From a virus (Duplodnaviria; Caudoviricetes), in the IMG/VR virus record IMGVR_UViG_3300036851_000157, positions 386 to 64,385 of that record: a stretch of 64,000 nucleotides of DNA. The stretch is one strand, 5' to 3'. The notes under the pieces were generated by a model. It was not told the origin of the DNA. It did no database searches and saw only the letters and a program-made list of their open reading frames with translations. Below are positions 18,959-52,522 of this stretch, one piece after another; within the stretch, counting starts at the first letter, position 1; each line of letters starts with the position of its first letter. The translations under genes and the position numbers were made by a program.

Positions 18959-19192
18959 TCAAGGTCTCGTCACGATGATGTGTTTCCCTGTGACGTTCTC
19001 CTCAACAATTTCTCTCATTGCTTGCTCCCGATCAGCCTCTTGGTCTGCATCACTCAATGAATCAGAAGTAATGATGATCCTATCGAGGAGACCGGGTGTG
19101 TTGTATCCATGAACCATGTCCCAGATGAACCACTCATCCCAGTTATCGAACGGATCGAAAGGATTATCTGATGTACTAAGCATTATAGCCAT
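18959..19192 (-). CDS. Conserved acidic hypothetical protein
   Basis: MLST.DNPFDPF..WDEW...D...GYNT; coupled to the RNAP-like gene. Confidence 0.8.
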   Translation of the reverse strand: MAIMLSTSDNPFDPFDNWDEWFIWDMVHGYNTPGLLDRIIITSDSLSDADQEADREQAMREIVEENVTGKHIIVTRP

Positions 19193-22008
19193 CAGCTTTC
19201 TCCTCTCAAGCTGTTCTTCAGTGTAGTGAGTGATACACCCAGAGCTTGTGCTACCTCAGCCTGTGTGTGACCAGAGGCCAGCATGGCCTTGGCTCTAGGA
19301 AGTTGTGAACCACCCATCAAAGTAGTCTGACGTGGGGTGGCTAGCTTCTTCACAGTCTCAAGGTCTGCATTGTCCAAGATAGACTTCAGCTTGCTAGGAC
19401 TGATGGCTCTTGCTTGGATGGCGGTCCATTCTTGAGGGGTGATTTGGATCTGGTCCTTGCCAGCACCAACTCTAGACCTCGCCTGCTGTAGTGCTTGGAA
19501 CTTCACCCTCTTGATCTGGGCAGCATCCATGTCTGGAAGATCTACCCTCTTCTGAGCCAATGTAGTATTGGCATAGATCTGAGCTTGACGTTCCAAAGGT
19601 CTGTTCTGGATGGCCTGATTAAGCTTGGCCGTCAGAGACTTGACCTCTTGGTCATAAGCACGAGTAGCAGAAGGCACAGCTTTGTCAAGCTTGGTGTTGA
19701 CAAGTTCTTTCCTTGCCAGGTTTGCCAATGCCTTCATCCTGTTGCTGTGTTCAGCATACGCCGCTTCGATGCTAGTGCCAGGTTTTTCCTTAGATCCACC
19801 TGATGTCAAAGCAAACGCGTCCTCTGCAATCTCTAGCTTCTTGCGTGGCGCAGTTGGGAAGCGAGTCTTCCCCGTGACAGGATCAACCCATTCCTCACCT
19901 TTTGGTACCAAGATCCTTCGACCTGTGATTGGATCAATGCCGCGCTGCTTGACAGCACGAGCTTGCCTATCTACAGAGCCGGCCCTAGAGATCAAGGTTG
20001 ACGCACCGCCAGCCGCTTGTCCTCCAGGTCGAGGTTGATACTTCTGTTGAAGGGCCTTGATGCCGTTGTCAATCTCTGATGCCTTGTAATCCAAGGAATG
20101 CTTCTCAGCATCAATAACAACCATAGAGTGTTTGACAGCACGAGCAAGTTCATCGTTGCTGGCTCCACGAATCGTCATGTCAGTGATGAGATTTGACACC
20201 TTACCCATGTGTTGCTGCTTGCCTGAGGGAGAAGTCTTTCCTGGCGTGCCATCGGGCTTTACCCCATAATCGATCTTGCTGGCTTTAGCATCCCAACGTC
20301 CACCATCAATAGTCTTCATTCCATCGTAAGGAGGATACTCCCTTTGTGGATCAAAGTGCTTCAATTCTTCCAATGAAGGAGAGCTCTTAATGGTTGTTCC
20401 TGGTCGCTGCGGAATGACAATGACAGAATCTCCATCAAAGTCAGCTCCCGACAACTTTGCTGCTACCTTGGGGTTGATGCCGATTGCGTCAGGCGGATGC
20501 TCACCAAACGCCTCTCTTGCAAGCTTGTGCCTGTTGTTGACAGTCAGCTCTGGAATCTCGAAGGTTCCGCCATGGGGGTAGCGGATAAGAACTACGCGAT
20601 CGCCGTTTTTGTACGTCGGTGCGTAGACCTCCGTCTCTTTCATCGTTGGAATGGGGAGGATGACACGAGACGCCTGGCCCGGAAGAGCTGCTGCTTTTAG
20701 ATGGACAGCCGACGAATCCGCGCCATCCGCAAAGGACTCGAGAAGCTTCGCTCGAACTGCCGGATTGGTGAGTTGCATGATCTCGTCAAGCTTTTCGCGT
20801 TCTGCATCGTAAGTTGCCTGCAGTTGGCGCCTTGCGAGAGTCGGGCTCTGCTTCGACAGAAATTGAGACGACAAGTTATCGGACCAAGTATCCCAATTAC
20901 CTTCTTCGTTGATCTTGTTCATCACAGAAGTGACTTTACCGGTTTTCTCGTCAATGACCTGTCCACCATTCGGCCTGATCTGTGCACCAAAGGGGTTATC
21001 ACTGTCGATCGTTCCGTCGTCCTTCTTCTTGAGCTCCTTCATGACATCGATCTTGCTGCCACCAGGGTTCTTGTTGGTGTTAAACTGAAGATCTACACCC
21101 TTCGGCATATCTGGCTTGTAGACGGCCATCCCTTTGAGATAGTGCGTGCCGTCGACCATGATTCGAACCTGGGCATAATGTGCTGATCCAAGTGAGACAT
21201 CTTTGACACCAGGCCTGACATAAATGACACCGTCTGCCTCCTTGCCTCCTTGATCTGCGTAAATGATGCCAACGCGTCGAGAAGAGATTGATAGAGGCGG
21301 TTTAATGCCAAGGATAGTCTTTCCGTTATCCTTCGAGAATTTTCCAAGAGCGTCGAGCTGTTGGATTTCTCCTTTTCGAGCATTGAGCTCCTTGTATGTC
21401 GTGCCGGGCGGTGTGAGAACACGGATCGTGGTCTTGTTACCTGGTGCAGTGCCGAGTTGGTCGACCTGTACTTTGTGGACCATGTATCCCTTTTCTTTTA
21501 GCACCGCTACTGCCGCCTTGAGGCGAGACTCAGCGATACCAAGGTGTTGTTCCACGCCAGTTCCGATGTCGATGAAACGCTTAGATGCAACACCCTCTTC
21601 CAACATCCGAGAAACGTTGTGAAGAGCATCGATCTTCGCGCGAGCGTCATCAGCAAGCAGCGAACGAATCGTTGATTCCTTCGACTTGGTACCGAACATC
21701 TTCTCCGCAATAGCCGTGTGTGACCATCCTTGATCGCGAAGCTTCTGAGCTTGATGGATCTGCTGCTGCTTTTGTTGAGCCTTGGCAATTGTCCTAGCGG
21801 CACGGTATTCGGTAGTGCTGATACCGACCATCTTACAAGCCTCGGTAATGGACATATTGCCCTCGGACTTAATCTTGTCGAAGTACGCCAAGAACTCGCG
21901 ATTTCTCACATTCTCGGTGCTACCTGAACCCCAAGGATAGCGGCCCGACCTACGAAGGATGCCGTAGTGAGCCAGATAGTCATCTTTTTCAATGAGCTCG
22001 CTCACCAT
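19192..22008 (-). CDS. Putative single-chain two-barrel (DPBB) RNA polymerase with HTH segments
   Basis: LSGADFDGDSV at ~20428-20448, upstream LIRYPH and YLKGMA; HTH-like segments at both ends. Confidence 0.75.
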   Translation of the reverse strand: MVSELIEKDDYLAHYGILRRSGRYPWGSGSTENVRNREFLAYFDKIKSEGNMSITEACKMVGISTTEYRAARTIAKAQQKQQQIHQAQKLRDQGWSHTAIAEKMFGTKSKESTIRSLLADDARAKIDALHNVSRMLEEGVASKRFIDIGTGVEQHLGIAESRLKAAVAVLKEKGYMVHKVQVDQLGTAPGNKTTIRVLTPPGTTYKELNARKGEIQQLDALGKFSKDNGKTILGIKPPLSISSRRVGIIYADQGGKEADGVIYVRPGVKDVSLGSAHYAQVRIMVDGTHYLKGMAVYKPDMPKGVDLQFNTNKNPGGSKIDVMKELKKKDDGTIDSDNPFGAQIRPNGGQVIDEKTGKVTSVMNKINEEGNWDTWSDNLSSQFLSKQSPTLARRQLQATYDAEREKLDEIMQLTNPAVRAKLLESFADGADSSAVHLKAAALPGQASRVILPIPTMKETEVYAPTYKNGDRVVLIRYPHGGTFEIPELTVNNRHKLAREAFGEHPPDAIGINPKVAAKLSGADFDGDSVIVIPQRPGTTIKSSPSLEELKHFDPQREYPPYDGMKTIDGGRWDAKASKIDYGVKPDGTPGKTSPSGKQQHMGKVSNLITDMTIRGASNDELARAVKHSMVVIDAEKHSLDYKASEIDNGIKALQQKYQPRPGGQAAGGASTLISRAGSVDRQARAVKQRGIDPITGRRILVPKGEEWVDPVTGKTRFPTAPRKKLEIAEDAFALTSGGSKEKPGTSIEAAYAEHSNRMKALANLARKELVNTKLDKAVPSATRAYDQEVKSLTAKLNQAIQNRPLERQAQIYANTTLAQKRVDLPDMDAAQIKRVKFQALQQARSRVGAGKDQIQITPQEWTAIQARAISPSKLKSILDNADLETVKKLATPRQTTLMGGSQLPRAKAMLASGHTQAEVAQALGVSLTTLKNSLRGES

Positions 22009-23635: not shown

Positions 23636-23865
23636 ACAACTCCTCTTAGAAGTTTTGAGCGCCGAACATAAACGGCGTCTACACTACGATCAAGCTTTAA
23701 CGACACTTGCGTAATGTCGAAAGGCTCAGTCATTATGAGTAGATCCTCGTCGGCTCCCCACCGCCTCCTTGAGCCGGGTCCTGACTTAGGTTTTGCCCCG
23801 CGATCAATCATTCGAGCTCTTGAGGCGCGATTGTGGTTTTTACGCTTTGCACCTTTACTCGGCAT
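23632..23865 (-). CDS. Small HTH-like DNA-binding protein
   Basis: W..DED...KLDRS.DAV..RRSKL. Confidence 0.6.
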   Translation of the reverse strand: MPSKGAKRKNHNRASRARMIDRGAKPKSGPGSRRRWGADEDLLIMTEPFDITQVSLKLDRSVDAVYVRRSKLLRGVV

Positions 23866-25401: not shown

Positions 25402-28086
25402 TCAGAAGCCCAATTTTCCTGCTAATGCAGACTCATTGAAGCTCTTCTTCAACCCAAGAGCCTTAGCCACTGCCAAGTCGATCGCAGCCTTCGAAATGAG
25501 CCTGTAATAGTGCAAATCCGAAAATGACGTGTTCATTCTGTCAATTCTGCCGTGTGCTTGGTGCCAATTCTTGTACGAATACGGCATCGAATAGAACACA
25601 ATTGCGTCAGTCTCGGTACACTCCCAGGCTTCCGCCCCGGCCACATATTGAACAAGGTACACCCACGATGTGGTAGTGGGAACGTCCTCGTGTTTGTGTC
25701 CATTCCACTCCGCGACCTGAAATTGCGGCGTAGATCCAGAACCGTTGCCAGTCGAGCATGGGTCCGACAATGGTTTCGATGGCCTCAATAACGCTTCGGT
25801 ACTCGTCTTCGAGAGTCTGCCCGTGGGTGAGTCGGTATCGATCCCTGTTTTTGATGTACCGATCGCTAGCCTTGAGCCGTCCGAGGTCTTCGTATGCGCC
25901 GGTAGGTAACGGGTCTTCTGGTGTTTCTGACATTCGTCAGTCCTTTCTGCAATTACAGATGAGTTCTCCAGCATCGAGATGTCTCTTGAGATGGTTAGCC
26001 CTCTTCCATCGGTAGTAGAGAGTCTCTCGGACTGCTGCGTGTTCTTCTGATCCTTCTCGGAGAGATCTGAGGAATTTGATCTTGTCTTCGACTCGAGATC
26101 CCCAGACCCACTCTCCGAGCTTAGGGAATCCGTAGAACCCGATTGGCGGCACGTACAGGCCGTCGAAGAACATTCCTCCGGGTTGTTCTGACATTCCTCA
26201 GTCCCTTCTGACTGCTTCGACGTGGTAGTTCGGAACAGCGATCCACTCTCCGTTGAAGAAGACTCGGAAGTGGTCGATTCGGTCCCAATCGATGATGGGG
26301 TGTGTGGTACTGTCGGAAATGCTTTGGAACCACGCTCTGATGGCTCGTTGCTCGTCGTCAGTGAAATTTGTGTTGAGCACGAGCGGAGCCCATCGCAGGA
26401 ACATGTCGGTGTGGCTTTCTCCTGAGACATCAACCCATCGTGAACCGTCCCAGTAATGTCCGTCTGGAGCGGGTCTAGGTGCTGGGGTTGTCGTGAGGTC
26501 TCGTCCATCCTCTCCCGGGATGAGTCCAAGAGCCTCGAGCTCCATCCGGATGAGTTGTTGAATTCCTCGTCGGGTCCACTTCCGTTCACTGTCAACATAA
26601 TCGTACTCGGGTTTGTCGAGCTTGAGAGCAAGTCCAGGTCGTTCTGCTCCACAATTTGCGCAGGACTTGAGTGCCCAGAGCTCGATGGGGTTTTCCTTGT
26701 TGAGGAGTCGAGGACAGTAGTGTGTCCATCTTTCCCCATCAATAAGATCTCGTTCGTTTGTTGCCATTGGCCATCCTCCTGTGTTTTCGATGAATTCTTC
26801 CACACCAACAGGGAGTTCGCTCTCAGTCCCTCCGGACTCAGTAGGTACTCCCATGGGTCGCTTAGGGTTTGCTCCTCGCCACAGCTCTGTTTGAAGTTGT
26901 TCAGAGAGTCCTTCTCGCAGTCTGTCAGCAAACTCTCCATACTCGAGGTAATCGGGTCGTTCGGACACATCCGCCCGTCGTGCTCGATTCTGCAGAGTTC
27001 GCAGAAGTTCGTCTCCCCGAAGGTGCGCCGCGGTCCCGTAATAGTGGAGCTCTTCCCCTTCAGACATTCTCTACACTCCTTCTTCCCAATTGACGAGTCC
27101 TGCGACATCTTCGGAGATGATGCTGAATCGTGCTCCGTGATTTCGGACCAACTCGTATTGCGCGTCTGTGAGGGTGAACTCTCGTTCCACGTAGTCTCCG
27201 ACGTTGTCGCTCCAGACCTTTCCTCTAATAATGTGGGGTCGGCGAGGGTCCTCAGAATCTCCAACTCGTAGTCGAAGTTGTAGAAGACAATCAACTTCGG
27301 ATGCTTCTTCAGCAATGAACGAATTGCCGTCAATCGAGAAGCGTCGGTGTACACAACCTTGCGTAGGACACGGAACAGTTCCCCGGCGTCCTGAATAGGT
27401 CTGTTTTCTAATACATTCCATCTCTTGCTCACCAGCTCCTTTACTAGGTCTTTGTCAAAGTCAACTAGGATGTCGTGGTTGTGTCGGGTGGTGTGTCGCT
27501 CGTACGGCATGTCCACAAGGAGCTGGTTTCTCCAGCGGACGAGCTTCCCAACATTCCGGTAACGAAGGAGCTGGTTGTATCGACCAGTCCACCGATACAC
27601 GCAGTGATCATCCTTGAATTGCGTAAGATTCTTGACGAATCCATTTGCACGGAACACGGGCACGTAATCGAGCCAAGTGTCTCCCGGAGTTGCCGAAAGC
27701 ATGATCCAGTGATTGTTCTTGGCAATCTCATAGAATGCCTTAACCCAGGCACCAGTTCCGACAAGTCTCTGCTCGTCGAAGATGAAGAAAGCATCTTTGC
27801 GCTCCTTGTACTTGTCGATGTTGTTCCAGGAGTCAACCTCTACGACTGCTCCCATGGTAGTGTCTGGGTGTCGCGTCATCCCAATCTGCACGAAGATGTT
27901 CTGCCAATCGAACTTATCGCGCTTCTTGGCCGTAGTGATGACAATGATGTCCCGTGGTGCCTCGTTCTGAAGGTAGTAGCCAACCGCGGTATGGCTTTTG
28001 CCGACGCCCACACCCCCACAGAGGATGCAACCGTTGTGCATTTTGGCTACAGCCTTCTCTTGGTGTGGCTTCAGCTCGAAGGTCAA
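25402..28086 (-). CDS. SF2 (SNF2-like) helicase with a ~500-aa in-frame low-complexity insertion
   Basis: GVGVGKS, FDEQR, LSATPG at N-terminus; QY.AGAE, QAHGRIDR at C-terminus; Ser/Thr-rich middle. Confidence 0.85.
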   Translation of the reverse strand: MTFELKPHQEKAVAKMHNGCILCGGVGVGKSHTAVGYYLQNEAPRDIIVITTAKKRDKFDWQNIFVQIGMTRHPDTTMGAVVEVDSWNNIDKYKERKDAFFIFDEQRLVGTGAWVKAFYEIAKNNHWIMLSATPGDTWLDYVPVFRANGFVKNLTQFKDDHCVYRWTGRYNQLLRYRNVGKLVRWRNQLLVDMPYERHTTRHNHDILVDFDKDLVKELVSKRWNVLENRPIQDAGELFRVLRKVVYTDASRLTAIRSLLKKHPKLIVFYNFDYELEILRTLADPTLLEERSGATTSETTWNESSPSQTRNTSWSEITEHDSASSPKMSQDSSIGKKECRECLKGKSSTITGPRRTFGETNFCELCRIEHDGRMCPNDPITSSMESLLTDCEKDSLNNFKQSCGEEQTLSDPWEYLLSPEGLRANSLLVWKNSSKTQEDGQWQQTNEILLMGKDGHTTVLDSSTRKTPSSSGHSSPAQIVEQNDLDLLSSSTNPSTIMLTVNGSGPDEEFNNSSGWSSRLLDSSRERMDETSRQPQHLDPLQTDITGTVHDGLMSQEKATPTCSCDGLRSCSTQISLTTSNEPSERGSKAFPTVPHTPSSIGTESTTSESSSTESGSLFRTTTSKQSEGTEECQNNPEECSSTACTCRQSGSTDSLSSESGSGDLESKTRSNSSDLSEKDQKNTQQSERLSTTDGRGLTISRDISMLENSSVIAERTDECQKHQKTRYLPAHTKTSDGSRLAIGTSKTGIDTDSPTGRLSKTSTEALLRPSKPLSDPCSTGNGSGSTPQFQVAEWNGHKHEDVPTTTSWVYLVQYVAGAEAWECTETDAIVFYSMPYSYKNWHQAHGRIDRMNTSFSDLHYYRLISKAAIDLAVAKALGLKKSFNESALAGKLGF
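25607..25933 (-). CDS. Nested gene in helicase (-1 frame)
   Basis: GAAAGGA RBS; MSE start; C-terminus overlaps the helicase C-terminal domain. Confidence 0.55.
   Translation of the reverse strand: MSETPEDPLPTGAYEDLGRLKASDRYIKNRDRYRLTHGQTLEDEYRSVIEAIETIVGPMLDWQRFWIYAAISGRGVEWTQTRGRSHYHIVGVPCSICGRGGSLGVYRD
25937..26194 (-). CDS. Nested gene in helicase (-1 frame)
   Basis: AAGGGA/GAGG RBS; MSE start; normal protein composition. Confidence 0.65.
   Translation of the reverse strand: MSEQPGGMFFDGLYVPPIGFYGFPKLGEWVWGSRVEDKIKFLRSLREGSEEHAAVRETLYYRWKRANHLKRHLDAGELICNCRKD
26198..27067 (-). CDS. Nested gene in helicase (-1 frame), 289 aa
   Basis: GAAGGAG RBS; normal composition; HYC..CANC and APDGHYWDGSRW motifs. 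Confidence 0.7.
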   Translation of the reverse strand: MSEGEELHYYGTAAHLRGDELLRTLQNRARRADVSERPDYLEYGEFADRLREGLSEQLQTELWRGANPKRPMGVPTESGGTESELPVGVEEFIENTGGWPMATNERDLIDGERWTHYCPRLLNKENPIELWALKSCANCGAERPGLALKLDKPEYDYVDSERKWTRRGIQQLIRMELEALGLIPGEDGRDLTTTPAPRPAPDGHYWDGSRWVDVSGESHTDMFLRWAPLVLNTNFTDDEQRAIRAWFQSISDSTTHPIIDWDRIDHFRVFFNGEWIAVPNYHVEAVRRD

Positions 28087-33782: not shown

Positions 33783-34028
33783 TCAAGACGTGTGGTGATC
33801 GATGGCGATTACCTCGCCACCCATCTTCTCTTTCACGAGCGCAACTGCCTCGTCCATCGAGGCGATGGTCTCCTTGTCGAAGTCGCGGGAGGACTGCATG
33901 GCCTTTGCCTTCGCCTTGCGGCGCTTGGCGCGGGTCCTGCCGTCCTGCCACTCTTCAAACGAAGCGTGAGCCATCACTCCGATCACGAAGAACAGAATGG
34001 CTGTGATGAAGAAAGCATAGGTGGTCAT
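33783..34028 (-). CDS. Cassette membrane protein
   Basis: Promoter 34057; RBS; N-terminal TM; hairpin 33752-33775. Confidence 0.75.
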   Translation of the reverse strand: MTTYAFFITAILFFVIGVMAHASFEEWQDGRTRAKRRKAKAKAMQSSRDFDKETIASMDEAVALVKEKMGGEVIAIDHHTS

Positions 34029-34228
34029 GGTTCTCCTTCTTACAGTTGGGGTCTTTTCATTAGAGGCCATGAATTTGTTGCGAGCAGTTTAACGATCATG
34101 CTCAGGACGGCGTGAGTACAAGGCGCAACGGCCAAATTAAAACTCGCATATGGTTAGAAATGCCAAGAGGCTAGGAGTCTCTTGCGAGTCTTCAACTAGC
34201 CTCTTGGCGTGTTGCCCCCCGGCAACAT

Positions 34229-34333
34229 TCAGCGGTTCTTGATGTACAGCACGATGCGGGAAGCGTTGTTGCACTGAGCGACGTACTGGTTGTAGTCGAC
34301 TCGGGCAGCAAGCATTCGCTTGGTGAGGTTCAT
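34229..34333 (-). CDS. 34-aa cassette peptide
   Basis: Promoter 34364; AAGGAG RBS; MNLTKRMLAARVDYNQY; hairpin 34161-34208. Confidence 0.6.
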   Translation of the reverse strand: MNLTKRMLAARVDYNQYVAQCNNASRIVLYIKNR

Positions 34334-34486
34334 TTCTTCTCCTTGTTGGGTGTCTATGGGGGTCTATTATGGGCGTTGTAATTCTTGCGAGGGGGTAGAG
34401 ATTTGGACGCCAGTCACGGCCCTCTACCCCCTCTATTAAGAGGGATTCTTCACAAAAGGTTTTCTCATCTCAGTGCCTTTTGTGAA

Positions 34487-34564
34487 CTATCTCTTGGGCA
34501 CCACCAACAGGATTGCGATGGTCGAAGCAACCAGCGAGATGACACTCATCGTGTAGGCGGACAT
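34487..34564 (-). CDS. 25-aa hydrophobic peptide
   Basis: GAGGAGGTG RBS; MSAYTMSVISLVASTIAILLVVPKR. Confidence 0.55.
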   Translation of the reverse strand: MSAYTMSVISLVASTIAILLVVPKR

Positions 34565-34589
34565 CGTACTCACCTCCTCTTTCTCTAAC

Positions 34590-35590
34590 TGTAGACAAAT
34601 AAAGGGGCGCAAGGCAGTTCCAGTCTCGGATGATAACTGCGGCTGTCATTTAAGACCGAGCGAATGCGCTTCCCCACGCCGCTGATCCCCACAAAGTATA
34701 GGTGTTCCTGGGCTGACTCAACGACTAAAATGCCGAGGCTACCAGCCAGTAGCTTTAAGGTTAACATAGCAGGAACGTGCGTTTATATGCAGCAAGACCT
34801 CGCCAGGCCTTATGGGATTCGGCAATTCGTGTCCTCACCCATGGATAGTTCGCTACGCGTTCTACCCGCGTCTGTGTGAGCAGTTTAGTAGCCAGACATG
34901 CTCAGGTCTGATGGGATTCGGGCCAACTCCCTCACCCATGGACACCGCTCGGCGGAACGGAGAAACGCCGTCACGGCACCCGCGTCTTCAGAGTACGCCG
35001 CCTATCCTCAAGAATTTTACTCCCCGTCGTGTTTTTATTCACAAGAGAGAGCAAAGAAGAGGAAGCCTAGGACTTGTCAACGACGTACCCCGTCTAAAGA
35101 ACAGCAAGTGGGGACGAGTCAACCCCTAAAGACTTATCTGAAGTCACCTTGTTGTTCGGCTTGAGTGCGGCTTTTAGCGTCACGGCTTCTCACCCGTGTA
35201 CCAGTCATCCGCCAGGACTGTGCCCCGGTGTAGTTTTATTTAACAACCCGATCAAACCAGTTTACTCGTTTAAGAGGACTTAAAGATCACCGATTTGTCG
35301 TAGCGGAATATCAGGTCAACCTCTCCTTGCTCTGGCCATGCTTAATCAGGAGGTTCGTTACTGCATGGTAAAACCTGATGCTCAAGTAGGTGCCTGAATT
35401 GTTATCCCGGTACAGGCTCCCGGGGTGGGTGCCTCCAACGCCGACGTAAATGCCGGCCGCTGAAGAGGACTGCCATCCGACTGCTTCGCCGTCCTTGGCA
35501 GAGGACGCTTATCGCAAATGAGTCACCTATAACACGCTGCCTCATGGCCTTATTAGTACCCACTTCTTCAATCCTCGTAAGGATTGAAGA
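34590..35590 (-). ncRNA. Candidate large structured non-coding RNA region
   Basis: ~1 kb without a credible ORF; duplicated structural module, pseudoknot, many hairpins; strand inferred. Confidence 0.5.
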
Positions 35591-35593
35591 AAT

Positions 35594-35798
35594 CTACTTC
35601 GGGCAACCGTAGTTGCTGTTGTGCGCCAAAACCTTCACATTGGATCGTGGGTCGGCGTAGATCTTGCAGCCGTACCGGCAGTCGCTCAGAGCGAACTCGT
35701 ACATTCGAGCCACAACTGTCGGGTCCGGGTGAAGTGCCTCACTGGAACCCACCTCGTAGGTCACTTCGATCTTCTCGTCAATGTCAATCCAGTCCATG
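35594..35798 (-). CDS. Hypothetical protein
   Basis: GGGAG RBS; CRYGCK...H..NYGC. Confidence 0.6.
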
Positions 35799-35805
35799 TG
35801 TCTCC

Positions 35806-36069
35806 CTAACTCCAGGATCGCAAGTTCTCCTCGCCCCATCCATGACCTCGCATCTGAGTCCAGGGGATCTTACGCCTACGATTCTTCTTGCTTTTCATGC
35901 GCTTAGCCCATCGAGCCTGCTTGGGACCAACGCCCACCTCTGCGTAGCTCCATCTGAAGTCTCGCGGCACAGAGAACGTGCTACGGCCCTTGTAGGCGTA
36001 CTCGAACTCCTCGGCTCCGACCTCACGCAGTCGAACCCAAGAAGGTTTGGTTTTGTCGGTTTTCGACAT
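35806..36069 (-). CDS. Basic hypothetical protein
   Basis: AAGGAGG RBS; MSKTDKTKP.WV. Confidence 0.7.
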   Translation of the reverse strand: MSKTDKTKPSWVRLREVGAEEFEYAYKGRSTFSVPRDFRWSYAEVGVGPKQARWAKRMKSKKNRRRKIPWTQMRGHGWGEENLRSWS

Positions 36070-36194
36070 GTCATCTACCTCCTTCAGGTAAATAACATGT
36101 GACCACCTCCTTCTAGTTATGAGACAAACACTTCAAAGCCCTACCCAGGGCGTGAGCGGGGGATTCACACAACCCTGGGTAGGACGTTCAGGTG

Positions 36195-36635
36195 TCAACT
36201 ACGGTCGTAACCGATCACATGACGGCGTGTGATGCGTGCCTTGGTTCCGTACTTAGCGGCTCCATATGTCATGTTCGTACGGACAGGCTCGTGGTCGTCC
36301 TCAGTCGTCTCGAGGAATGCCTTGAGTTCCTTGTCGACGGCGAGCTCGCACTCCACCCAATACACACCCTCTGGCTTGCGACCGGGCTTCTGGTTGATGA
36401 TGTTGTACTTCTTTGTAAACTCCTTGTTGCTGATCCAGAGGTTGTGGACCGTCACAAGCGGAGAGAAGTTGTCTCCATCGAAGGAATTTCGGTCGTACGA
36501 ACCTGGTACGTTGATGACGAGCCAGTATCCATTCACGTTGGCGAACGGGTAGGCCGCGAACCCGGCCGGTAAACAGGCAACAGCGATCGGGTAGGTTTCC
36601 TCGTTGATAAGGATGGCCTGCGTCTTGATTCGCAT
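36195..36635 (-). CDS. Hypothetical protein
   Basis: AAGGAGGAG RBS before MRIKTQ; downstream hairpin ~36139-36184. Confidence 0.7.
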   Translation of the reverse strand: MRIKTQAILINEETYPIAVACLPAGFAAYPFANVNGYWLVINVPGSYDRNSFDGDNFSPLVTVHNLWISNKEFTKKYNIINQKPGRKPEGVYWVECELAVDKELKAFLETTEDDHEPVRTNMTYGAAKYGTKARITRRHVIGYDRS

Positions 36636-37054
36636 GTCTCCTCCTTCTTTGTAGAGATACCACTGTGATACCTCAAAGCCTGGCACAGATCCCACGCCAC
36701 ATGTTAAGGAGATGGTCTCCTACACAGCGGGGTCCCGGAACAAGTCTAGAAACGGGACGGCTTTCGGTGACGAGAGCTCCAAAGATCTGTGCCAGACGTT
36801 CAGATATCCGTTCTTGTTGTTGATCAACCTTGGACAATGTCATACAGACAAACGGAGAATGCGCCCAAGACTGCAAGAGTTAGCAGAAACATCTTCGCCT
36901 GGTCACTCTTCCTCATTGGGATGATCCCGACGTACATGGTTGTTGATGAGAGCAATCGCGACATCAGGATTCATATCGCTTCTCGTTTCAGAACACGTAG
37001 AGTAAGGACACCTGACAATTTTGCCCTCAGAAATGCTGTCGATGACGTCACCCA

Positions 37055-37597
37055 TCACTTCCCCCAGGCGTCGTACTCGGCCTTGGTGATCGTTTCACCA
37101 GCGGCGTTGAAGTATACGGTCTCATCGTCGTGGACCTCCCAGTAGGGTTGGCCGTGCTTGGGCTCATCGAGACTCTCAGGCTTCTTGACGGGAACCGGAT
37201 GATCTGGCTCCTCGACATGTGAGATGGTCTCCACGACAGTGGTGTCCGGGTTGGCCTCTGCTTCCTTGTGTGAGACGAACATACCTGTGCCGGCACTGCG
37301 AGCTATCGTCTTGTGACCGGCTGAGCCAACAACAGGCTCAAAGGACTTTTTGAAGGCCTTCTCGGTGAATGCCTTGAACGACGTTCCTGTCTCCGACATC
37401 TTGAGAACGTAGTCGTCCACGAAGGCCTTCGCCTGTCGTGTGCTGATAGCGTTCTTATCGACGATCTTGACGAAGCGCTCCTTACCCTCACCACCGATCT
37501 CGCCGTTGCACCAGGCAGCGACCTCTTCGATGTTCTCTTCTGACACAATGACGTAGGTCACGTCAAAGCTCTTGCGCCTTGCATTCTTGATATCCAT
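37055..37597 (-). CDS. Hypothetical protein
   Basis: Good codon bias; RSAGTG.FVS..EAEANPDTTVVET module. Confidence 0.75.
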   Translation of the reverse strand: MDIKNARRKSFDVTYVIVSEENIEEVAAWCNGEIGGEGKERFVKIVDKNAISTRQAKAFVDDYVLKMSETGTSFKAFTEKAFKKSFEPVVGSAGHKTIARSAGTGMFVSHKEAEANPDTTVVETISHVEEPDHPVPVKKPESLDEPKHGQPYWEVHDDETVYFNAAGETITKAEYDAWGK

Positions 37598-42893: not shown

Positions 42894-45800
42894 CTAGCTA
42901 GTGAATTCCTCGACCGGAACAAACGCCTCGATCGTCTTCTTGGCTGCGTCCATCAGTTTGTCGAAATATCTGTAGTCAATGTACTCGTCCGAGAACTCTC
43001 CAAGAGTCTTAGCGACCTCGGCCTCGATCCACAAATACCCCTTCGTGCCTGTAACGCTGAAGAGCTTGTCCTCCTCGCTACAGCGATAAAGAACCCCGGC
43101 CCCGCGAGTTCCTTCCTTCACCGGATAGAACAGTCCGCTCTTACCGATGTAACGCATTCCTTCCTTGACGGGAGGAGGCTTGTCGTACTCGAGATCCAAG
43201 TACATGACACCCTTCGTAACCTGCTTGGCCTGAGCCAGATCACGGAGATTGGTAATCTCTCCTGAGAAGAGATTCTTGAAGATCCAGGGCTCCTGGAACT
43301 GAGCGCCGGTTGCAGTCCACTGTCCTGCCATAGCAGGGTCATCAGCCTTCCACTTGTATCGGCCCACATAAACGGCGTCGTTCGCTAGAAGCAGCTTGTC
43401 GAACGTGGCTTCATGCTCGAACGTGTAACCGTACTTCTCGCCATATAACATGACCTCACGGATGATAAAGTCATCGGCATTCGGAATCTTCACCGAGTCC
43501 GTCTTGATGTGAGCTACAGTGTAACCCAGGCTCTGGATGTGGTGCTTCAGATCGATCATGAACAGAGCACCGCGCTTCGCTACGATGTTATCTCTGTTAC
43601 GATCGTCCTTGAATTTGTTTGGGAACCGCGCTGCAGTCAGCCCGTACACAATGTTGATAACGATCTTCAGAGCATCAGACAGAGCCTTCAGCTCAGACTT
43701 CTCACCACCAAGAAACGGCTTGAGTCTCCCATCGAGGAGTTTAGCGGCACGATTTAGGTCGCCACCCTTGATGGCAAGTCGGGCATCGACAAGATCGTTG
43801 AACTGCTTGGTGTAAGGACCGAAAAGGTTGAGGACTCGAATCGACGTCGGATGCATAGAAGCAACGTCCAAAAGAGCAGCATCCTCATAGTAGCCGGGCT
43901 CGGCGTATACGTAACCGCCCTCACCCGGGTCTTCGTCTCGATAGACAGACTTACCTTGATCGTAGGCATAACCCTTGAACTCCTTACCCAAGTCCGTGTA
44001 AACGAAACTTGCTTGCGGGTTGCGGTCATCCCCGAAGATGATCTTTGCAGTATGAGCTTGGGTTGTGTGATTGACACTTAGCCCACTCAACTCGGCAAGG
44101 ATCTGTCGAGCTTTGAAGTCACCTTCTCGATCGTCTGCTACCTCATCCGTGGTTTGGACGTCATTCCTGCAGTACTTCAGAATCTCAGGAATCTGCTCTT
44201 CTCGAACATCCTTATCCCAAGGAATGTTGCTCTCCATGTGGCGCAGTCCCAAATCGATCTGGAACTTCTTAAGAGACTTCTTGATGCTGCTATAGTCCCA
44301 AATATCCGCGTAGGAAAGGTTGTACGCCTCTCCAAAGAGCGCGTCGTTTCTGTTACCCACGATGATCTTCTGAGTCAGATCGAACAACTGCTTGTTGGAA
44401 TATCCGAGCATACGTGCGTACAGGATGTGGTTATCGAAGCGTCGGTTGTAGAACCCGATGAGCCGATAGGTGGAAACCAACTCCTCAATTTGCTGAGGAG
44501 TCGGATTGACCATGTCAGTGATCGTGCTTTCGTGTGCGCCACGAAGTTTCCAGCACACCACAAACAGATTCGGATAGACCTCAACGTCGTAAACGGCGAT
44601 CGGCTTCTCCGGCTGATCCTGCATGAGAGCATCCTCATCGACCAGTTCCGACTTCCAGTGGATCTTCATCACAACGTTTAGCGCCGCCGAAGACTGATTC
44701 GACGACTGGTTCGCGAAAGAGATGATTCGAGGCTTGAGGTCTGTAACGTCGTACGACATTCCAGAATCGTAAGCCTCGTCTGTCACCTTCTGGATGAAGT
44801 CCACATTCGACTTAGTGTGCGGATGAACTCGTTTCCTGAGAGCTCCCTCAATGAGGTTCCTCAAGTGACGCTCATCCTGAACGATCTTCTCCGCTAACAC
44901 ACGTTTCTCCTTGAGCGGGAGGGCTCCTTCTCGCAACGTACTGATTGGGATGTTGTTACACCGAGTAAGGCGACGTCGGAGAGAGGAGTTTCCATCAAAG
45001 GATTTGACCTCGATTCCGCGAGAGTGAGTAAGGGACAGTTCCGACACGTCTCCATCGTAGAGATAGTGAAGGTGCACCCCATTTCCACCTTGAGAAAGTT
45101 CACCATATGTCGCAGGCCAATTGGACGCCGCTTCGAGATTTCTCTCAAGCGACTTGTTTCCGGACTCGTCCGTGATGTCGAAGTCGATGACGATGTGGTT
45201 CTTGGGTACCTTGACATAATGAAGTTCGGAAGTATCGAGATCGGCCAGTATTGTGCTGGCGTTTTCCCACTTGTACTTCGGACGCCAAAGTTGCTTTTCG
45301 TCATCGAAGACTGCTTGTTGAGCCGAACAGTCAGCCAAGACTTCGTCGAGAAGACTCTCCTCGAGATCCAAGACCAAACTGTATGCATGCGCCCCCTTGA
45401 TAGGAGCCTTGAAAGGATGAGCGTTGAAGCCAGTGTAAAGACTCCTAACGTCAGCGTTATTGAACCGTCCACGGTCTTTGTACTCCTTGAAGTAACTCTT
45501 CAACTCTTCACGGATCTCATACATGGGGCGCACCTTCTCGATGTTTGCCTCGCTGCAGTATTGCTTATAGAGTTGGTACGCCTGAGAGAGCGTCGTACCA
45601 TCCTGCTGCTTGAAGACATCCCAGTTGTACTCGATGTAGTTGAAGAACACGTTAGTCTGGAGCATCATTTGATTCGGACGATATCCAGAGTAGTACGCCT
45701 TCCCCATCTCGCGATAAACCTTAAGACAATGCGCAGCAATCGCGCCCAACTCAAAGTCTATTTGTGCCATGAGAGCGTGGTAGTGGTTTTCTGGCAGGTT

Positions 45801-46706
45801 TACACCGGTCGGGTTGATGTCGATCATTCGTCGAAGAAGACCCGACTTAGACGACGTGATTTTGACCGGTTCGTTGGTGCCGACAAGCAAGAAAGCGTTT
45901 ACCCTACTTGAGTGAGTGGGCTTGTACTTCTCGTTCATCAGCATCTTTTCGTGTGAGACGATTGAGTTGATCTTAGTATTATCGCTTACGCGACTAAGAT
46001 CTGCATCCTGCTGAATCGCTACGAGAGGGTTCTTTCCGAACGCTTCGGTTGCGAACTGAGCGTTACTGTTCCCCAGAGCCTTGGCATCGAACGAAGTGGT
46101 GTATCCATGGAACAATCTCTCGATGATATCGAGAACCGTCCCCTTACCAGATCCTGGAGGACCGTAGAACACACCAAACTTTTGAATGTACTTGCTGTCA
46201 CCAGCAACAATACATCCAATAATCCACTCAATTTTCGCACGCTCTTCCACAGAATAAAGAGTGCCAAGCAGCTCATCGTAAGCAGGACAATCTCCAGAAA
46301 CAAGAGCGTAAGGAAGACGGTGTGAAACATAATCCTCCTTCTTGACGTCTGTGTTTAGGAATGTGAGGGTGCTGTTCAGTTCATGACTGTTGTCGCTAAG
46401 AAGGCTGATGAAATTCCGGAATGCCCTCCAACTTCCGTTGGCCGAGGAGCGAAGATACTTGACCGAGAACGGTGCTGAGATATCCAGATTGTCCGCGTAC
46501 TTCTTCAACTCAGCATCAACGAGCCGCTGTACATCGTATTCGTCTGTGCTCCACAGACCCTTCTCCTCATCCCAGATAGCATAGAATTGCTTCCCCTTGA
46601 CCATCAGATCCGTGAATCTGTTGACCTGGAAGTCTGGGATGATGTCGTATTCACCCTTTCGCGGTCCGCTCTTTACTTCGCTAAGAACAATCTTGAAGAA
46701 ATCCAT
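42894..46706 (-). CDS. Fused SF3 helicase, primase and family-B-like DNA polymerase
   Basis: GPPGSGKG; VIDFDI...SQGGNGVHLHY; exonuclease YDVEV; DVASMHP, K..IN..YG, KTDS. Confidence 0.9.
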   Translation of the reverse strand: MDFFKIVLSEVKSGPRKGEYDIIPDFQVNRFTDLMVKGKQFYAIWDEEKGLWSTDEYDVQRLVDAELKKYADNLDISAPFSVKYLRSSANGSWRAFRNFISLLSDNSHELNSTLTFLNTDVKKEDYVSHRLPYALVSGDCPAYDELLGTLYSVEERAKIEWIIGCIVAGDSKYIQKFGVFYGPPGSGKGTVLDIIERLFHGYTTSFDAKALGNSNAQFATEAFGKNPLVAIQQDADLSRVSDNTKINSIVSHEKMLMNEKYKPTHSSRVNAFLLVGTNEPVKITSSKSGLLRRMIDINPTGVNLPENHYHALMAQIDFELGAIAAHCLKVYREMGKAYYSGYRPNQMMLQTNVFFNYIEYNWDVFKQQDGTTLSQAYQLYKQYCSEANIEKVRPMYEIREELKSYFKEYKDRGRFNNADVRSLYTGFNAHPFKAPIKGAHAYSLVLDLEESLLDEVLADCSAQQAVFDDEKQLWRPKYKWENASTILADLDTSELHYVKVPKNHIVIDFDITDESGNKSLERNLEAASNWPATYGELSQGGNGVHLHYLYDGDVSELSLTHSRGIEVKSFDGNSSLRRRLTRCNNIPISTLREGALPLKEKRVLAEKIVQDERHLRNLIEGALRKRVHPHTKSNVDFIQKVTDEAYDSGMSYDVTDLKPRIISFANQSSNQSSAALNVVMKIHWKSELVDEDALMQDQPEKPIAVYDVEVYPNLFVVCWKLRGAHESTITDMVNPTPQQIEELVSTYRLIGFYNRRFDNHILYARMLGYSNKQLFDLTQKIIVGNRNDALFGEAYNLSYADIWDYSSIKKSLKKFQIDLGLRHMESNIPWDKDVREEQIPEILKYCRNDVQTTDEVADDREGDFKARQILAELSGLSVNHTTQAHTAKIIFGDDRNPQASFVYTDLGKEFKGYAYDQGKSVYRDEDPGEGGYVYAEPGYYEDAALLDVASMHPTSIRVLNLFGPYTKQFNDLVDARLAIKGGDLNRAAKLLDGRLKPFLGGEKSELKALSDALKIVINIVYGLTAARFPNKFKDDRNRDNIVAKRGALFMIDLKHHIQSLGYTVAHIKTDSVKIPNADDFIIREVMLYGEKYGYTFEHEATFDKLLLANDAVYVGRYKWKADDPAMAGQWTATGAQFQEPWIFKNLFSGEITNLRDLAQAKQVTKGVMYLDLEYDKPPPVKEGMRYIGKSGLFYPVKEGTRGAGVLYRCSEEDKLFSVTGTKGYLWIEAEVAKTLGEFSDEYIDYRYFDKLMDAAKKTIEAFVPVEEFTS

Positions 46707-47231: not shown

Positions 47232-48036
47232 CGTGCAGACGGAACTTTCTTGATTGCGAATGCTTCAGATGTGGCTGATCTTCGTCAAGACCCATGACCT
47301 CATCCGTGTAACGACCGGTAGACCTTGTGATGTAGAGGTCAAGGGGTGGGTCCAACGTTTCATTGCGGACGAACAGCGAGTGCTCATCGCCTGACCCGTA
47401 ACCGAAACGAAGGAGATTGTCGTCTCCCACCACTCGCTCAGTATCCATGATCGGGTTGTACTCGTCTTGATCGTCGACCAGGACTTGATCGCCATCGTAG
47501 TACGTGAAGCGCTTCTGCTCGTGATCAGGCTCATTTTCGTAGTACTCGCTCTTCGTGATGATGTACGGCTCGGACGGGTCTCGATCAGCCATGAGTGCAT
47601 CCATGACTTCATCACCAGGTGCCTGGTAATCCGCGAAGGTGTTTCGCGTCGTGGGCTCTCGCTTCTCCACGCCTTCGTGATCTTCAGCAGGAGGAACATA
47701 GGTGCCCATCGCCTTCATGGCATTGGTCATGAGCCGATCCTGGACAACCTCTTCCAACTCATCCCAGGTGCCTGCAGGAGCTTCTTCATCTCCCTCTTCG
47801 GGATCCTCTTCAACCTCAGACTCAGGCTGAAGCACCAACGGAGAACGGGAATACATCCGCTGATAGAGAACGCGTGCTTCCGCAATTTCCTTGTCAGCCA
47901 GCTCCCTGTACTTCTTCTCCAGGATCTTGGAGGCCACTACATACCCCACAGCGGCTCCTACGCCGGCGGCAACCGTCAGGCCAGAGGGCACAAGAAGCTT
48001 GAGATTGACCGTCTCCGTTTTCGCTAGCCACTTCAT
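47224..48036 (-). CDS. Membrane-anchored hypothetical protein
   Basis: N-terminal TM; PYII...EY, TYY.GD.VL.D, FVRNE. Confidence 0.8.
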   Translation of the reverse strand: MKWLAKTETVNLKLLVPSGLTVAAGVGAAVGYVVASKILEKKYRELADKEIAEARVLYQRMYSRSPLVLQPESEVEEDPEEGDEEAPAGTWDELEEVVQDRLMTNAMKAMGTYVPPAEDHEGVEKREPTTRNTFADYQAPGDEVMDALMADRDPSEPYIITKSEYYENEPDHEQKRFTYYDGDQVLVDDQDEYNPIMDTERVVGDDNLLRFGYGSGDEHSLFVRNETLDPPLDLYITRSTGRYTDEVMGLDEDQPHLKHSQSRKFRLHDE

Positions 48037-48911
48037 CGGCTCATCTTTGCATCGTCAAGCATGTGGTGGACCATGCCGGCGACATTGAAGTCGAGCAAGA
48101 GCGAGCGCTGCTGATTGTACATCTCCGTCCACTTGATCTCGACGAAATCATCGCTCTTATCTGATGGAATGATCCAACCACAAAGCTGACCGTTCTGGGT
48201 GACCGGAATGTCGAACGCCTCGTACACTGTATTCAGGAACAAATATCCCTGAGCACGAAGCTTGTCCGTGAGGAAGTCCTGCTGCAGCTTGATGTAATGA
48301 ATGTTGTACTCAGGAAGATGCTGGAAAGTGCTACTCCGCTCATCCCAGAGCACAGCGTACGGACCGCCCTCAGTGGGCCGCTGAACCGTGGTCTTTTTGG
48401 TGCCCTTGCCAGTTGTCTCGGTCAGCTCAACGGGAGTCGAAGCATAGTAAACATCCTTCTCCCTTTCCTCCCCGATCTCCTTGCGAACTCGAGCACGATA
48501 TCCATCCAGAAACTGCTGGAGGGAGACGTACGCTCCTGTCAAGGCAGCGTTGCGTTGAGTCAACTGACGGTGTGACTTGGTCAGACAGAAGATCGACACC
48601 GAACCGAGGATGACCGACGGCGCGTACAGCTTGGTAACCTCGATCGCGGTATTGAGCATGATGTGAGCCCTCTGCTGTCGGGCTTCCTCCTGGTCGACCT
48701 GCTTCCGCGACTGAATCACGTCAACGTTGATCAGGTCTTTCTTCATGTGATCCACGACAGGCTGTGCCTTCAGCGTGGCTCGGCAAGCAAGCACGGTCGC
48801 TGTGACCGCACCAGTCACGCCGGCGACGAAGAGAATCGTCGGCGAGTTCTTCTGGGTCTTGAGAACCGTTCGGCCCACTACACGAGTGACGGCCTGCGGC
48901 ACATACTTCAT
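48033..48911 (-). CDS. DUF6353-like membrane protein
   Basis: SPTIL..AG..G, ACRAT, KLYAP, GYLFLN.VY, G...GW, LDFNV. Confidence 0.7.
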   Translation of the reverse strand: MKYVPQAVTRVVGRTVLKTQKNSPTILFVAGVTGAVTATVLACRATLKAQPVVDHMKKDLINVDVIQSRKQVDQEEARQQRAHIMLNTAIEVTKLYAPSVILGSVSIFCLTKSHRQLTQRNAALTGAYVSLQQFLDGYRARVRKEIGEEREKDVYYASTPVELTETTGKGTKKTTVQRPTEGGPYAVLWDERSSTFQHLPEYNIHYIKLQQDFLTDKLRAQGYLFLNTVYEAFDIPVTQNGQLCGWIIPSDKSDDFVEIKWTEMYNQQRSLLLDFNVAGMVHHMLDDAKMSR

Positions 48912-51760: not shown

Positions 51761-52522
51761 TTAGAAACCCGGCTTAGGCTGCTGCCTGAACTTGATTTCC
51801 GTCACAGCCATTCCGTTGTCCAACAACACCGGCGAGAACACGATATCAAGCGCCTCTCCCGCCGCCCATCCGAGGATGTGTCCGACACCTGTTGGATCGA
51901 GCCCAAGCTCGTCGTAAAAGGTGTTCAAGGACGCACCGCGTTGGTTGTTGGCCTCGAAATTCACGAAGTTCATGGCCTTCTTAACCGATTCCTGCGTCGA
52001 AAGGAAGTAACGGCCCGAAGAGTTGTCCTTGAACCAGGACAGGCCCTCATTTGTAACGGCCCCGGGCGGAATGAACTCTCGATCGATCTTGTCGCGGGCA
52101 ATCGAGTTGTCGATTTCATCCATCTTCTTGAATCCCAACTGCTCGGCAGCCTTGTCACGGAACTCATCGAAATCTCCTGAGAGCAGCCCGTAAGCAGCAG
52201 CCAGTGCAGCGTATCGACGCGCCTGGACACGATTTGCAGCCACGATGCAGCCGACGGCCATTACCCCTGTCGCTGCAGCGGGGATGTAAAGCTTCCAGAC
52301 CTTCTCGAAACGAGCCTTGTTGTTGAGTTGGAAAGACTGATCGTCGTTTTCAACCTTTCCCACGATTTCTTCGTGCTGGATCTGCTGTGCGGCCTTCCAG
52401 GTTGCCTTGCCTGTGAGATAGACCGTCACGCCAGCGCCAGCAATCCCCAGGATGGTGAGGATCTGAGGCGATTCCTTGGTGACGAACTTCCCAAGGTCCT
52501 TGGTGATGTGCTTGAGGTTCAC
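51761..52522 (-). CDS. DUF6353-like membrane protein (paralog)
   Basis: SPQILT..G..G, GKAT, KLYIP, SLN.FY, G..LGW. Confidence 0.7.
   Translation of the reverse strand: MNLKHITKDLGKFVTKESPQILTILGIAGAGVTVYLTGKATWKAAQQIQHEEIVGKVENDDQSFQLNNKARFEKVWKLYIPAAATGVMAVGCIVAANRVQARRYAALAAAYGLLSGDFDEFRDKAAEQLGFKKMDEIDNSIARDKIDREFIPPGAVTNEGLSWFKDNSSGRYFLSTQESVKKAMNFVNFEANNQRGASLNTFYDELGLDPTGVGHILGWAAGEALDIVFSPVLLDNGMAVTEIKFRQQPKPGF

Follow-up and report, generated by a model that had tools for sequence, protein, structure and literature searches.

The DNA considered here is a window of 64 kb (64,000 nucleotides, nt; "the window" means the whole of this DNA), made up of bases 386-64385 of the 64,385-base viral record IMGVR_UViG_3300036851_000157 in IMG/VR, which CheckV rates as complete. 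Nearly all of the genes in the window are carried on the minus strand, and the subject of this account is a stretch of about 1 kb (34590-35590) which lies between small minus-strand genes, has no evident gene of its own and may encode a group of short structured RNAs. The longest minus-strand run without an open reading frame (ORF) of at least 65 amino acids (aa) is 34071-35593 (1523 nt), with the runner-up being 540 nt. The only genes within this run that look real are one of 34 aa (34229-34333) and one of 25 aa (34487-34564), leaving 34565-35593 (1029 nt) free of genes. The original prediction, made from the letters alone, had described the stretch as the longest without a credible minus-strand gene, and this is indeed the largest minus-strand ORF gap in the genome. 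The G+C content of the stretch (0.48-0.56) is like that of the genome (~52%).

In the direction of the genes the stretch is preceded by an 81-aa gene (35594-35839, minus strand) with a perfect hairpin, T0, directly after its stop, and is followed by the leader of the 25-aa gene and two further hairpins, T1 and T2. The boundary hairpins that had been claimed at the two ends do exist, T0 at 35564-35591 and T2 and T1 at 34389-34494. Between them lie the blocks named modules A to F, together with a spacer (G) and a variable insert (Table 1).

Scans of IMG/VR, using patterns from blocks A, C, D and E and from the peptide gene as well as the flanking proteins, recovered only two true relatives of the non-coding stretch. 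The close relative (L004, L010 and L030) is 93.7% identical over 3.3 kb, and the distant relative (L009 and L031) has a neighbouring 180-aa protein that is 60-65% identical, with the nearest alignable coding DNA of L009 being 76% identical over 312 nt. Records L011-L013 were rejected as relatives, as they share a chance 19-22-mer inside a coding gene, and relatives of the flanking proteins (L005-L008 and L032) are without the blocks and without a comparable gap. Parts of the stretch are also held in 12 public DNA runs, with contigs of X4, X6, X7 and X10, which are soil, wetland and sediment runs from different studies, placed at a likeness of at least 80%. These contigs were compared through difference tables, and the details of substitutions and indels are those listed in them. 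A pattern scan of metagenomes gave 13 loci, all of them chance and about the number expected by chance, none being similar to the window or to each other beyond duplicate contigs. Species-representative genomes held no match to the cores of blocks A and D, and a blastn search of GenBank phages with 1401 nt found no match at E<=1e-5. Listings from literature searches gave no account of such an island. The divergence between the window and L004 is patchy everywhere, with 0-24 differences per 50 nt, and because it is patchy throughout little weight is given to the comparison of the window with L010.

The stretch is demonstrably non-coding, and as far as the sequence tells it is not covered by translated micro-ORFs, the circumstance that the original prediction had named as speaking against a functional RNA. 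Each of the 6 ORFs in or over the stretch is without a PHROG family (46 proteins scanned). The ORFs in it that are preceded by a motif like a ribosome-binding site are of 10 aa on the plus strand and of 53, 28 and 25 aa on the minus strand, and only the 25-aa ORF is conserved; the 53-aa ORF, which begins with GTG, has a stop after 8 codons in L009. The conserved blocks hold one- and two-base indels in L009, an X4 contig has a series of 1-, 2-, 4- and 6-base indels inside them, and in a six-frame comparison (50 segments of the stretch) the similarity to L009 falls over the same blocks in several frames, in pieces of 9-33 aa. Coding is excluded for the blocks because of these non-triplet indels and the similarity in multiple frames.

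What is conserved instead is a series of discrete blocks. The homologue search proposed alongside the original prediction found that blocks of 65-110 nt are kept in the distant relative and recur in the contigs of all four runs. Blocks A-D are 83-89% identical to L009, more than the 76% of the nearest coding DNA, and block F (34603-34669), which is weaker, and the peptide gene (90%) are also conserved there. Local alignment scores of the blocks against L009 are 60-155, with a null maximum of 31, and the sequence between the blocks is unalignable between the window and L009. The order D-C-B-A-F-peptide is constant in every relative that spans several blocks.

Whilst the order is fixed, the content is not. 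In a 7.8-kb contig of X7 the peptide gene is followed by A, G, E and D in window order, with 719 letters replacing 34577-34779, 155 replacing 35097-35164, 108 replacing 35251-35392, and 150 extra letters after A at a fourth joint. One X4 contig joins 34597 to 34778, skipping 34598-34777, and joints at 34778/34779, 34985 and 35162-35164 recur across runs, with the joints at module E falling at 35162-35166. Substitutions against L010 cluster in 35007-35156, 35307-35406 and 35507-35556, which are the same spacers that are replaced in distant relatives. L009 has three small genes with good ribosome-binding sites between its blocks, one of 118 aa between B and A and two of 62 and 51 aa between A and F. 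A tblastn comparison of 8 L009 ORFs with the window gave matches at E<1e-9 only at 23644-23865, 36909-37055 and 37166-37597, with no remnants in the spacers. The first of these is the homologue of the 118-aa gene (L009 3420-3776; 53% over 74 aa), a small gene that moves between positions.

Table 1. Features of the gene-free stretch and its borders in gene direction, followed by the two replication genes on either side; identities are to the distant relative L009
Feature	Coordinates	Strand	Remarks
T0	35564-35575/35580-35591	minus	12-nt arms, 100% complementary, 4-nt loop; right after stop of 81-aa gene
Module D	35392-35563	minus	82.6% over 69 nt (blastn, 35449-35514); X7 covers 35392-35565
Variable insert C-D	35307-35391	minus	absent in L009; 108 other letters in X7; L010 substitutions cluster
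Module C	35240-35306	minus	conserved block, 86.4% over 66 nt (blastn, 35240-35305); no convincing conserved helix
Module E	35164-35239	minus	in contigs of X4, X6, X7 and X10 with 3-14 changes; not found in L009
Module B	35098-35162	.	65-nt three-way junction (predicted); 85% (35097-35161)
Spacer G	34987-35097	minus	most variable part against L010; X7 covers 34988-35097 with 14 changes and 20 gaps
Module A copy 2	34888-34986	minus	89% over 109 nt (blastn, 34882-34988); model R2 116.3 bits
Module A copy 1	34789-34872	minus	diverged tandem duplicate, P2 tip missing; model R2 65.8 bits, E 3.6e-12
Module F	34598-34788	minus	34603-34669 partly conserved in L009, score 60 (null maximum 31)
Leader and 25-aa peptide gene	34487-34597	minus	GGAGG at 34573-34577, 8 nt before ATG; ORF 34564 to 34487
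T1	34441-34459/34476-34494	minus	19-nt arms, 84%
T2	34389-34400/34422-34433 (34389-34433)	minus	12-nt arms, 100%
Primase/polymerase	42894-46706		PHROG
Helicase	25402-28086		PHROG

Model R2 detects module A twice in the window, twice in the close relative and once in L009, and five further records or loci give nothing below E ~1. On the gene strand the module is predicted to fold into three abutting hairpins, P2, P3 and P4, closed by 2 bp. P2 has a 9-bp lower stem including 4 G.U pairs and a tip that is present, shortened or absent depending on the copy, P3 has the pairing AUGGG/CCCAU, an internal loop (UGA/GAAU) that is conserved and an inner stem that covaries, and P4 is of 5 bp. Because of its 4 G.U pairs the lower stem of P2 forms on the minus strand only, and both of the L010 substitutions within it keep pairing on that strand (G.U to A-U, and C-G to U.G). 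The consensus fold has an energy of -29.3 kcal/mol on the minus strand versus -16.2 on the plus strand, and the two paralogues have the same minimum free energy (MFE) architecture on minus but not on plus. Across the four distinct copies 97.3% of 111 cells are paired, versus 36-44% when the partners are slid. Changes on both sides are seen for 4 of 29 pairs, a number reached by 6 of 500 shuffles, and the covariation score of 0.207, against 0.100 in shuffles, is reached by none of the 500.

The tandem repeat of A scores 47, with a null maximum of 26. In three of the four runs (X4, X7 and X10) position 34811 is joined to 34911, so the window and L010 carry a 99-nt duplication of A (34812-34910) that is absent from the other relatives, and this duplicate is an intact, self-contained copy of the unit. 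By eye it had seemed that module E could be a third unit of the A type, an idea rejected as R2 does not recover it even with filters off and E<=10.

Module B is predicted to have a 10-bp outer stem and two hairpins, one of 5 bp with a 5-nt loop and one of 4 bp with a 9-nt loop, and the loops are conserved. Both sides have changed in 2 of its 19 pairs, GC becoming AU in L010 and AU becoming CG in L009. Model R1 finds B as a single copy in the window, in L004 and in L009, and nothing else below E 0.01.

In module D a 16-nt segment, GUGGGUACUAAUAAGG (gene strand), is conserved right after T0, and a core 20-mer (35466-35485) is exact in both L009 and L010. The D hairpin S1 (35490-35494/35503-35507) is predicted independently in the window and in L009, and by eye the two differ by a swap of two compensatory pairs (CGUCC/GGACG to CACCC/GGGUG), with two more hairpins lying at 35440-35457 and 35406-35424. 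The potential for a 6-bp pairing between CUGCCA in the loop of S1 and UGGCAG downstream is invariant, and it is possible that the two form an H-type pseudoknot. In T0, an 11-pair hairpin in this comparison, lie all 4 of the pairs, out of 15 predicted for the stretch, that keep pairing in L009 via two-sided changes, and X7 has a different hairpin sequence at the same position (with a loose end at 35565). T0 is the upstream boundary of the proposed unit and looks like either a terminator or a stabiliser, and it has no U-tract.

Compensatory changes are found in four helices or units (A, B, T0 and the D hairpin), and together with the better conservation of parts of the stretch than of its flanking genes they support a functional non-coding element.

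A 19-mer of module C is exact in L009 and L010, its other three matches in IMG/VR being chance ones in a coding gene, and a 20-mer of module E is found in IMG/VR in L010 only. Module F holds the two internal stems named in the original prediction, GTTCCTG (34704-34710)/CAGGAAC (34770-34776) and GCTAC (34738-34742)/GTAGC (34749-34753), which exist as sequence and are not conserved in L009. F is dispensable in some relatives, as seen from the X4 joint and the 719-letter swap in X7, other X4 contigs keeping 34658-34781. Spacer G contains 13 L010 differences within 35007-35106 and a tract (35043-35065) that is purine-rich on the plus strand and pyrimidine-rich on the gene strand, and that stays purine-rich in L010.

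The description of the stretch as hairpin-dense was not borne out, since its interior is neither richer in hairpins nor more stable than shuffled sequence. For 120-nt windows starting at 34600-35440, on both strands, the MFE z-score against dinucleotide shuffles is -2.2 to +1.2, and values of -3.4 to -4.3 are obtained only in windows that cover the boundary hairpins. When six block stretches were folded on both strands (12 folds, 200 shuffles each) only the plus strand of block B stood out (z -2.56, with 3 of 200 shuffles folding as well), and the 25 longest local inverted repeats of the window all fall outside 34600-35560. No conserved long-range pairing was found between blocks or between the ends of the unit (a judgement made partly by eye), and a pairing of 34844-34857 with 35299-35312 sits in the duplicate that is absent from relatives. 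The strongest perfect hairpins of the genome cluster within 34160-36200, and a long hairpin is also found at 36128-36195.

No known RNA family matches the stretch in the cmscan search of Rfam that had been proposed as a check. With Rfam 15 the whole window gave no matches at the gathering score. At E<=10 a 2001-nt scan gave as its sole match a chance one to HOTTIP_2 at 34078-34220, outside the stretch, and a 1041-nt scan of the stretch itself gave none. Four related loci gave two chance matches only at E<=1, both below the gathering score, and six metagenome loci gave nothing usable at the gathering score. The models of GOLLD (RF01998) and ROOL (RF03087) have no match in the window at the gathering score, and neither has one at E<=10 in the same 2001-nt and 1041-nt scans. 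Nor do the Rfam models of self-cleaving ribozymes and group I/II introns match, and there is no split host gene at the borders. ARAGORN found no transfer RNA (tRNA) or transfer-messenger RNA (tmRNA) in the 64-kb window or in 7 related loci, so the siting near a tRNA island that is seen with GOLLD and ROOL does not occur here. The tRNA model (RF00005) has no match at E<=10, and modules A and B are not cloverleaves; the string CGAAUCCC in P3 of A resembles half a T-arm, by eye only. The suggestion of a large non-coding RNA like GOLLD or ROOL is thus not upheld, given that there is no Rfam match, no nearby tRNA and that the conserved blocks are separable.

The 25-aa peptide at the downstream end of the unit, MSAYTMSVISLVASTIAILLVVPKR, is hydrophobic with a C-terminal PKR, and its gene is 90% identical to L009 over 100 nt. 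The L009 peptide has 3 conservative residue differences and 3 silent codon changes, and because of such changes the ORF is taken to be a real gene. It has no PHROG or Pfam family and is predicted from its sequence to be a membrane peptide. A gene of this size is below that reported by routine gene callers, and it resembles type I toxins or small phage membrane peptides. The position of the peptide gene and its GGAGG shows that the minus strand is the one read, at any rate at the 3' end of the unit. The windows that cover T1 and T2 have z-scores of -2.1 to -3.4, and these terminator-like hairpins form the downstream boundary of the unit, with L009 having hairpins of unrelated sequence in that position (by eye). 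The region further downstream (34071-34487) is made of mini-cassettes, with the 34-aa gene having a good ribosome-binding site and being followed by a perfect 13-bp hairpin (34162-34174/34196-34208).

It is proposed, with a probability of about one half, that the stretch is an island of separate short (~65-110 nt) structured RNA modules on the gene strand and not one large RNA. The "cluster of RNAs" half of what had been predicted fits the separable blocks better, and the half that envisaged a single large RNA does not. That the modules are independent is argued by their clean separation, the self-contained duplicate, the lack of a fixed downstream gene and the lack of a conserved helix between modules. 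Their transcription, strand, processing and action in trans we infer. The unit would start with T0 after the preceding gene and continue, in gene direction, with D, the variable insert, C, E, B, the pyrimidine-tract spacer, A2, A1 and F, and would end with the GGAGG, the 25-aa membrane-peptide gene, T1 and T2. Its modules would be transcribed together with the early or middle genes around them, and would afterwards serve as independent stable small RNAs or as protein-binding RNA elements, which related phages would gain, lose, duplicate and swap as cassettes in the manner of phage tRNA islands. It might further be imagined, though this is rather doubtful, that the modules are several new families of non-tRNA small RNA that work in trans, for instance by acting as decoys or sponges towards defence proteins of the host that bind or target RNA. 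In a bolder variant, drawn by analogy, the whole unit and the 25-aa membrane peptide would form one ribonucleoprotein in the manner of OLE and OapA.

A number of observations weigh against an island of structured RNAs. Neither the interior nor most of the blocks fold with a better energy than shuffles do, and modules C, E and F have no supported helix. Module B fits the plus strand slightly better (-21.0 versus -18.7 kcal/mol), with one wobble per strand. In module A, L009 has a mismatch (U-C) at one P2 pair, and copy 1 leaves two more pairs open. The whole-region fold is lower on the minus strand (-362.7 versus -321.3 on plus), but this is likewise so in several flanking coding windows, such as those starting at 35680-35840, and so probably reflects base composition and is no evidence for strand. 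A scan for sigma-70-type promoters on both strands of 33800-36200 found none, where 1.4 were expected, and a terminator scan of the same region found one weak terminator-like site versus 1.9 expected. The absence of covariation had been named beforehand as an argument against a functional RNA; compensatory changes are present in A, B, T0 and S1, but their counts are statistically weak, having little power because each module is represented by 3-4 distinct sequences, and related sequences can exceed shuffles without there being structure. Patchy similarity is also produced by phage mosaicism alone.

Rather unlikely is that the elements act in cis only, as parts of messenger RNA: terminators or stabilisers, ribonuclease processing sites, and a long structured leader that governs translation of the 25-aa peptide, much as the mRNAs of type I toxins are kept inactive, with no function in trans. 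In the window, L010, L009 and the 7.8-kb X7 contig alike the modules do stay with the peptide gene and keep their order, the unit is bracketed by hairpins on both sides, and the peptide, like type I toxins, is small, hydrophobic and basic at its C-terminus. By eye the gene-strand pyrimidine tract (the complement of 35053-35062) would be able to base-pair with the purines of the ribosome-binding site, but any CU-rich tract will pair with such a site and the pairing means little. Against this, A and the peptide gene are separated in L009 by two genes, and B and A by one, so that blocks A-D are bound neither to the peptide nor to a particular gene downstream. Module F, which adjoins the peptide gene, can be dispensed with in X4 and X7, and no antisense RNA or promoter was identifiable in the sigma-70-type scan.

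It is improbable that the elements work as DNA, either as an origin with single-strand initiation hairpins for the primase-polymerase or as binding sites for phage proteins. The location of the stretch between the primase/polymerase and helicase genes would suit an origin, a purine-rich tract is present, and hairpins in single-stranded DNA also show compensatory changes and tolerate G.T pairs. The stretch is however not AT-rich, it contains no iterons and shares no repeat with other parts of the genome, and the cumulative GC skew is monotone with no turning point. The presence or absence of cassettes and the tandem duplication of A would also be unusual for an origin.

The prospect of one structured RNA of ~1 kb, of a new class with conserved domains and a variable periphery, is distinctly improbable. 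It would explain why the order D-C-B-A-F-peptide is constant in multi-block relatives and why hairpins bracket the unit, and GOLLD too has a conserved and a variable part and may carry tRNAs in a linker (PMC12286853). Such an RNA would nevertheless have to be reconciled with the lack of an Rfam match in the stretch at the gathering score or at E<=10, of a conserved long-range helix and of any excess folding energy. It would also have to accommodate the genes with ribosome-binding sites that separate the blocks in L009, the relatives in which one block or another is replaced or absent, and the tandem duplication of a self-contained unit of 99 nt.

That the stretch is functionless, consisting of leftovers of mosaic recombination and decayed small genes, is highly improbable: phage genomes are mosaic, the patchy divergence means that near-identity with L010 proves nothing and the folding energies are ordinary, but the blocks are far smaller than genes and better conserved in L009 than the adjacent coding DNA, the substitutions in their stems are compensatory, they persist in all four runs, and the spacers of the window hold no remnants of the L009 genes.

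The genome in which the stretch resides is that of a soil phage, a siphovirus on the basis of PHROG matches to terminase, portal, a protease-capsid fusion, major tail, tape measure, helicase and exonuclease, with further matches for a 1270-aa DNA primase/polymerase and a 938-aa polymerase. As the identity of the primase/polymerase to proteins of Gordonia (Deejayvirinae) and Arthrobacter phages is at most 54.8% (279 records), the phage is regarded as an uncultured distant relative of actinophages. The 81-aa gene upstream of the stretch has homologues in Gordonia and Rhodococcus phages (24 records), in which small genes are tightly packed after it with no gap.

Several other proteins of the phage are of note in their own right. 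The 938-aa protein (19192-22008, minus strand) is a full-length match to phrog_4291 (1179 bits), labelled "RNA-dependent RNA polymerase", and has a helix-turn-helix at its C-terminus (residues 905-936; Pfam HTH_23 and HTH_7). This protein is probably a phage RNA polymerase of the single-subunit type that carries a DNA-binding domain itself. A 459-aa protein that adjoins the terminase (10279-11658, minus strand) has weak matches to the RNA ligase phrog_2659 and to a LigT-like phosphoesterase (below the Pfam cut-off), and may be an enzyme of the RNA-repair type in a phage that also carries an RNA island. The major-tail family phrog_2645 is matched by two minus-strand proteins, one of 293 aa (2823-3704) that spans the full profile and one of 588 aa (483-2249) in which the shared part is confined to the first 162 residues and which has a long extension. 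In the replication region two paralogues of phrog_2152 (function unknown) lie 3 kb apart on the minus strand, at 48033-48911 and 51761-52522 (E 2.7e-64 and 1e-60).

Apart from tRNAs, the non-coding RNAs of phages are still poorly covered by catalogues, and this is most true of soil and actinophage-like viruses. In this stretch at least two candidate motifs are well defined, the 99-nt three-hairpin unit and the 65-nt three-way junction, and they occur together with two or three further conserved blocks. All of these are under stronger sequence constraint than the surrounding genes and behave as mobile cassettes. If expressed, they would provide new RNA families for Rfam and a testable island of non-tRNA RNAs, and would offer a way into an early phage function that is not yet known; if they are only terminators and leaders the region is an ordinary one.

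Amongst known systems, the type I toxin-antitoxin loci of prophages, such as bsrG/SR4 and txpA/ratA, resemble this unit in that they encode a tiny hydrophobic peptide ending in a basic tail, have a strong ribosome-binding site and a structured untranslated region, and close with strong 3' hairpins. The unit differs from them in having no antisense RNA gene or promoter identified in the sigma-70-type scan, no family match, and upstream non-coding DNA that is far longer and modular. OLE RNA has a membrane partner, encoded by oapA, and the resemblance here is of a long conserved non-coding stretch directly upstream of, and syntenic with, a small membrane-protein gene. There is however no match to the OLE model, the peptide is of 25 aa and without a family, and in L009 genes separate most of the modules from the peptide gene.

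With GOLLD and ROOL the stretch has in common that it is phage-encoded, non-coding, of several hundred nt in all and of unknown function. GOLLD consists of one variable and one conserved part and, as is ROOL, is found near a tRNA island in phages or prophages (PMC12286853). The stretch differs from both in matching neither model, in having no adjacent tRNA island, in its separable blocks with genes between them in L009, and in the lack of a large conserved core with multiple pseudoknots.

It is tRNA islands themselves that the stretch most resembles. It shares with them an array of modules of ~65-110 nt in the orientation of the genes, conservation at the nucleotide level above that of neighbouring genes, variable presence, tandem duplication and the interspersion of small ORFs in relatives. 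A tRNA is also present in the same region of the genome of the cultured relative ReqiPoco6, 3.7 kb upstream of its homologue of the 81-aa gene. Unlike tRNA islands, neither the window nor the 7 related loci hold a tRNA or tmRNA, and instead of cloverleaves the predicted folds comprise a three-way junction and a set of three abutting hairpins. Phage tRNA islands can also include other small stable RNAs that are co-transcribed with the tRNAs, such as the species 1 and 2 RNAs of phage T4, and by analogy a tRNA island with small stable RNAs of this kind would be the closest counterpart of the stretch in behaviour, although not in fold.

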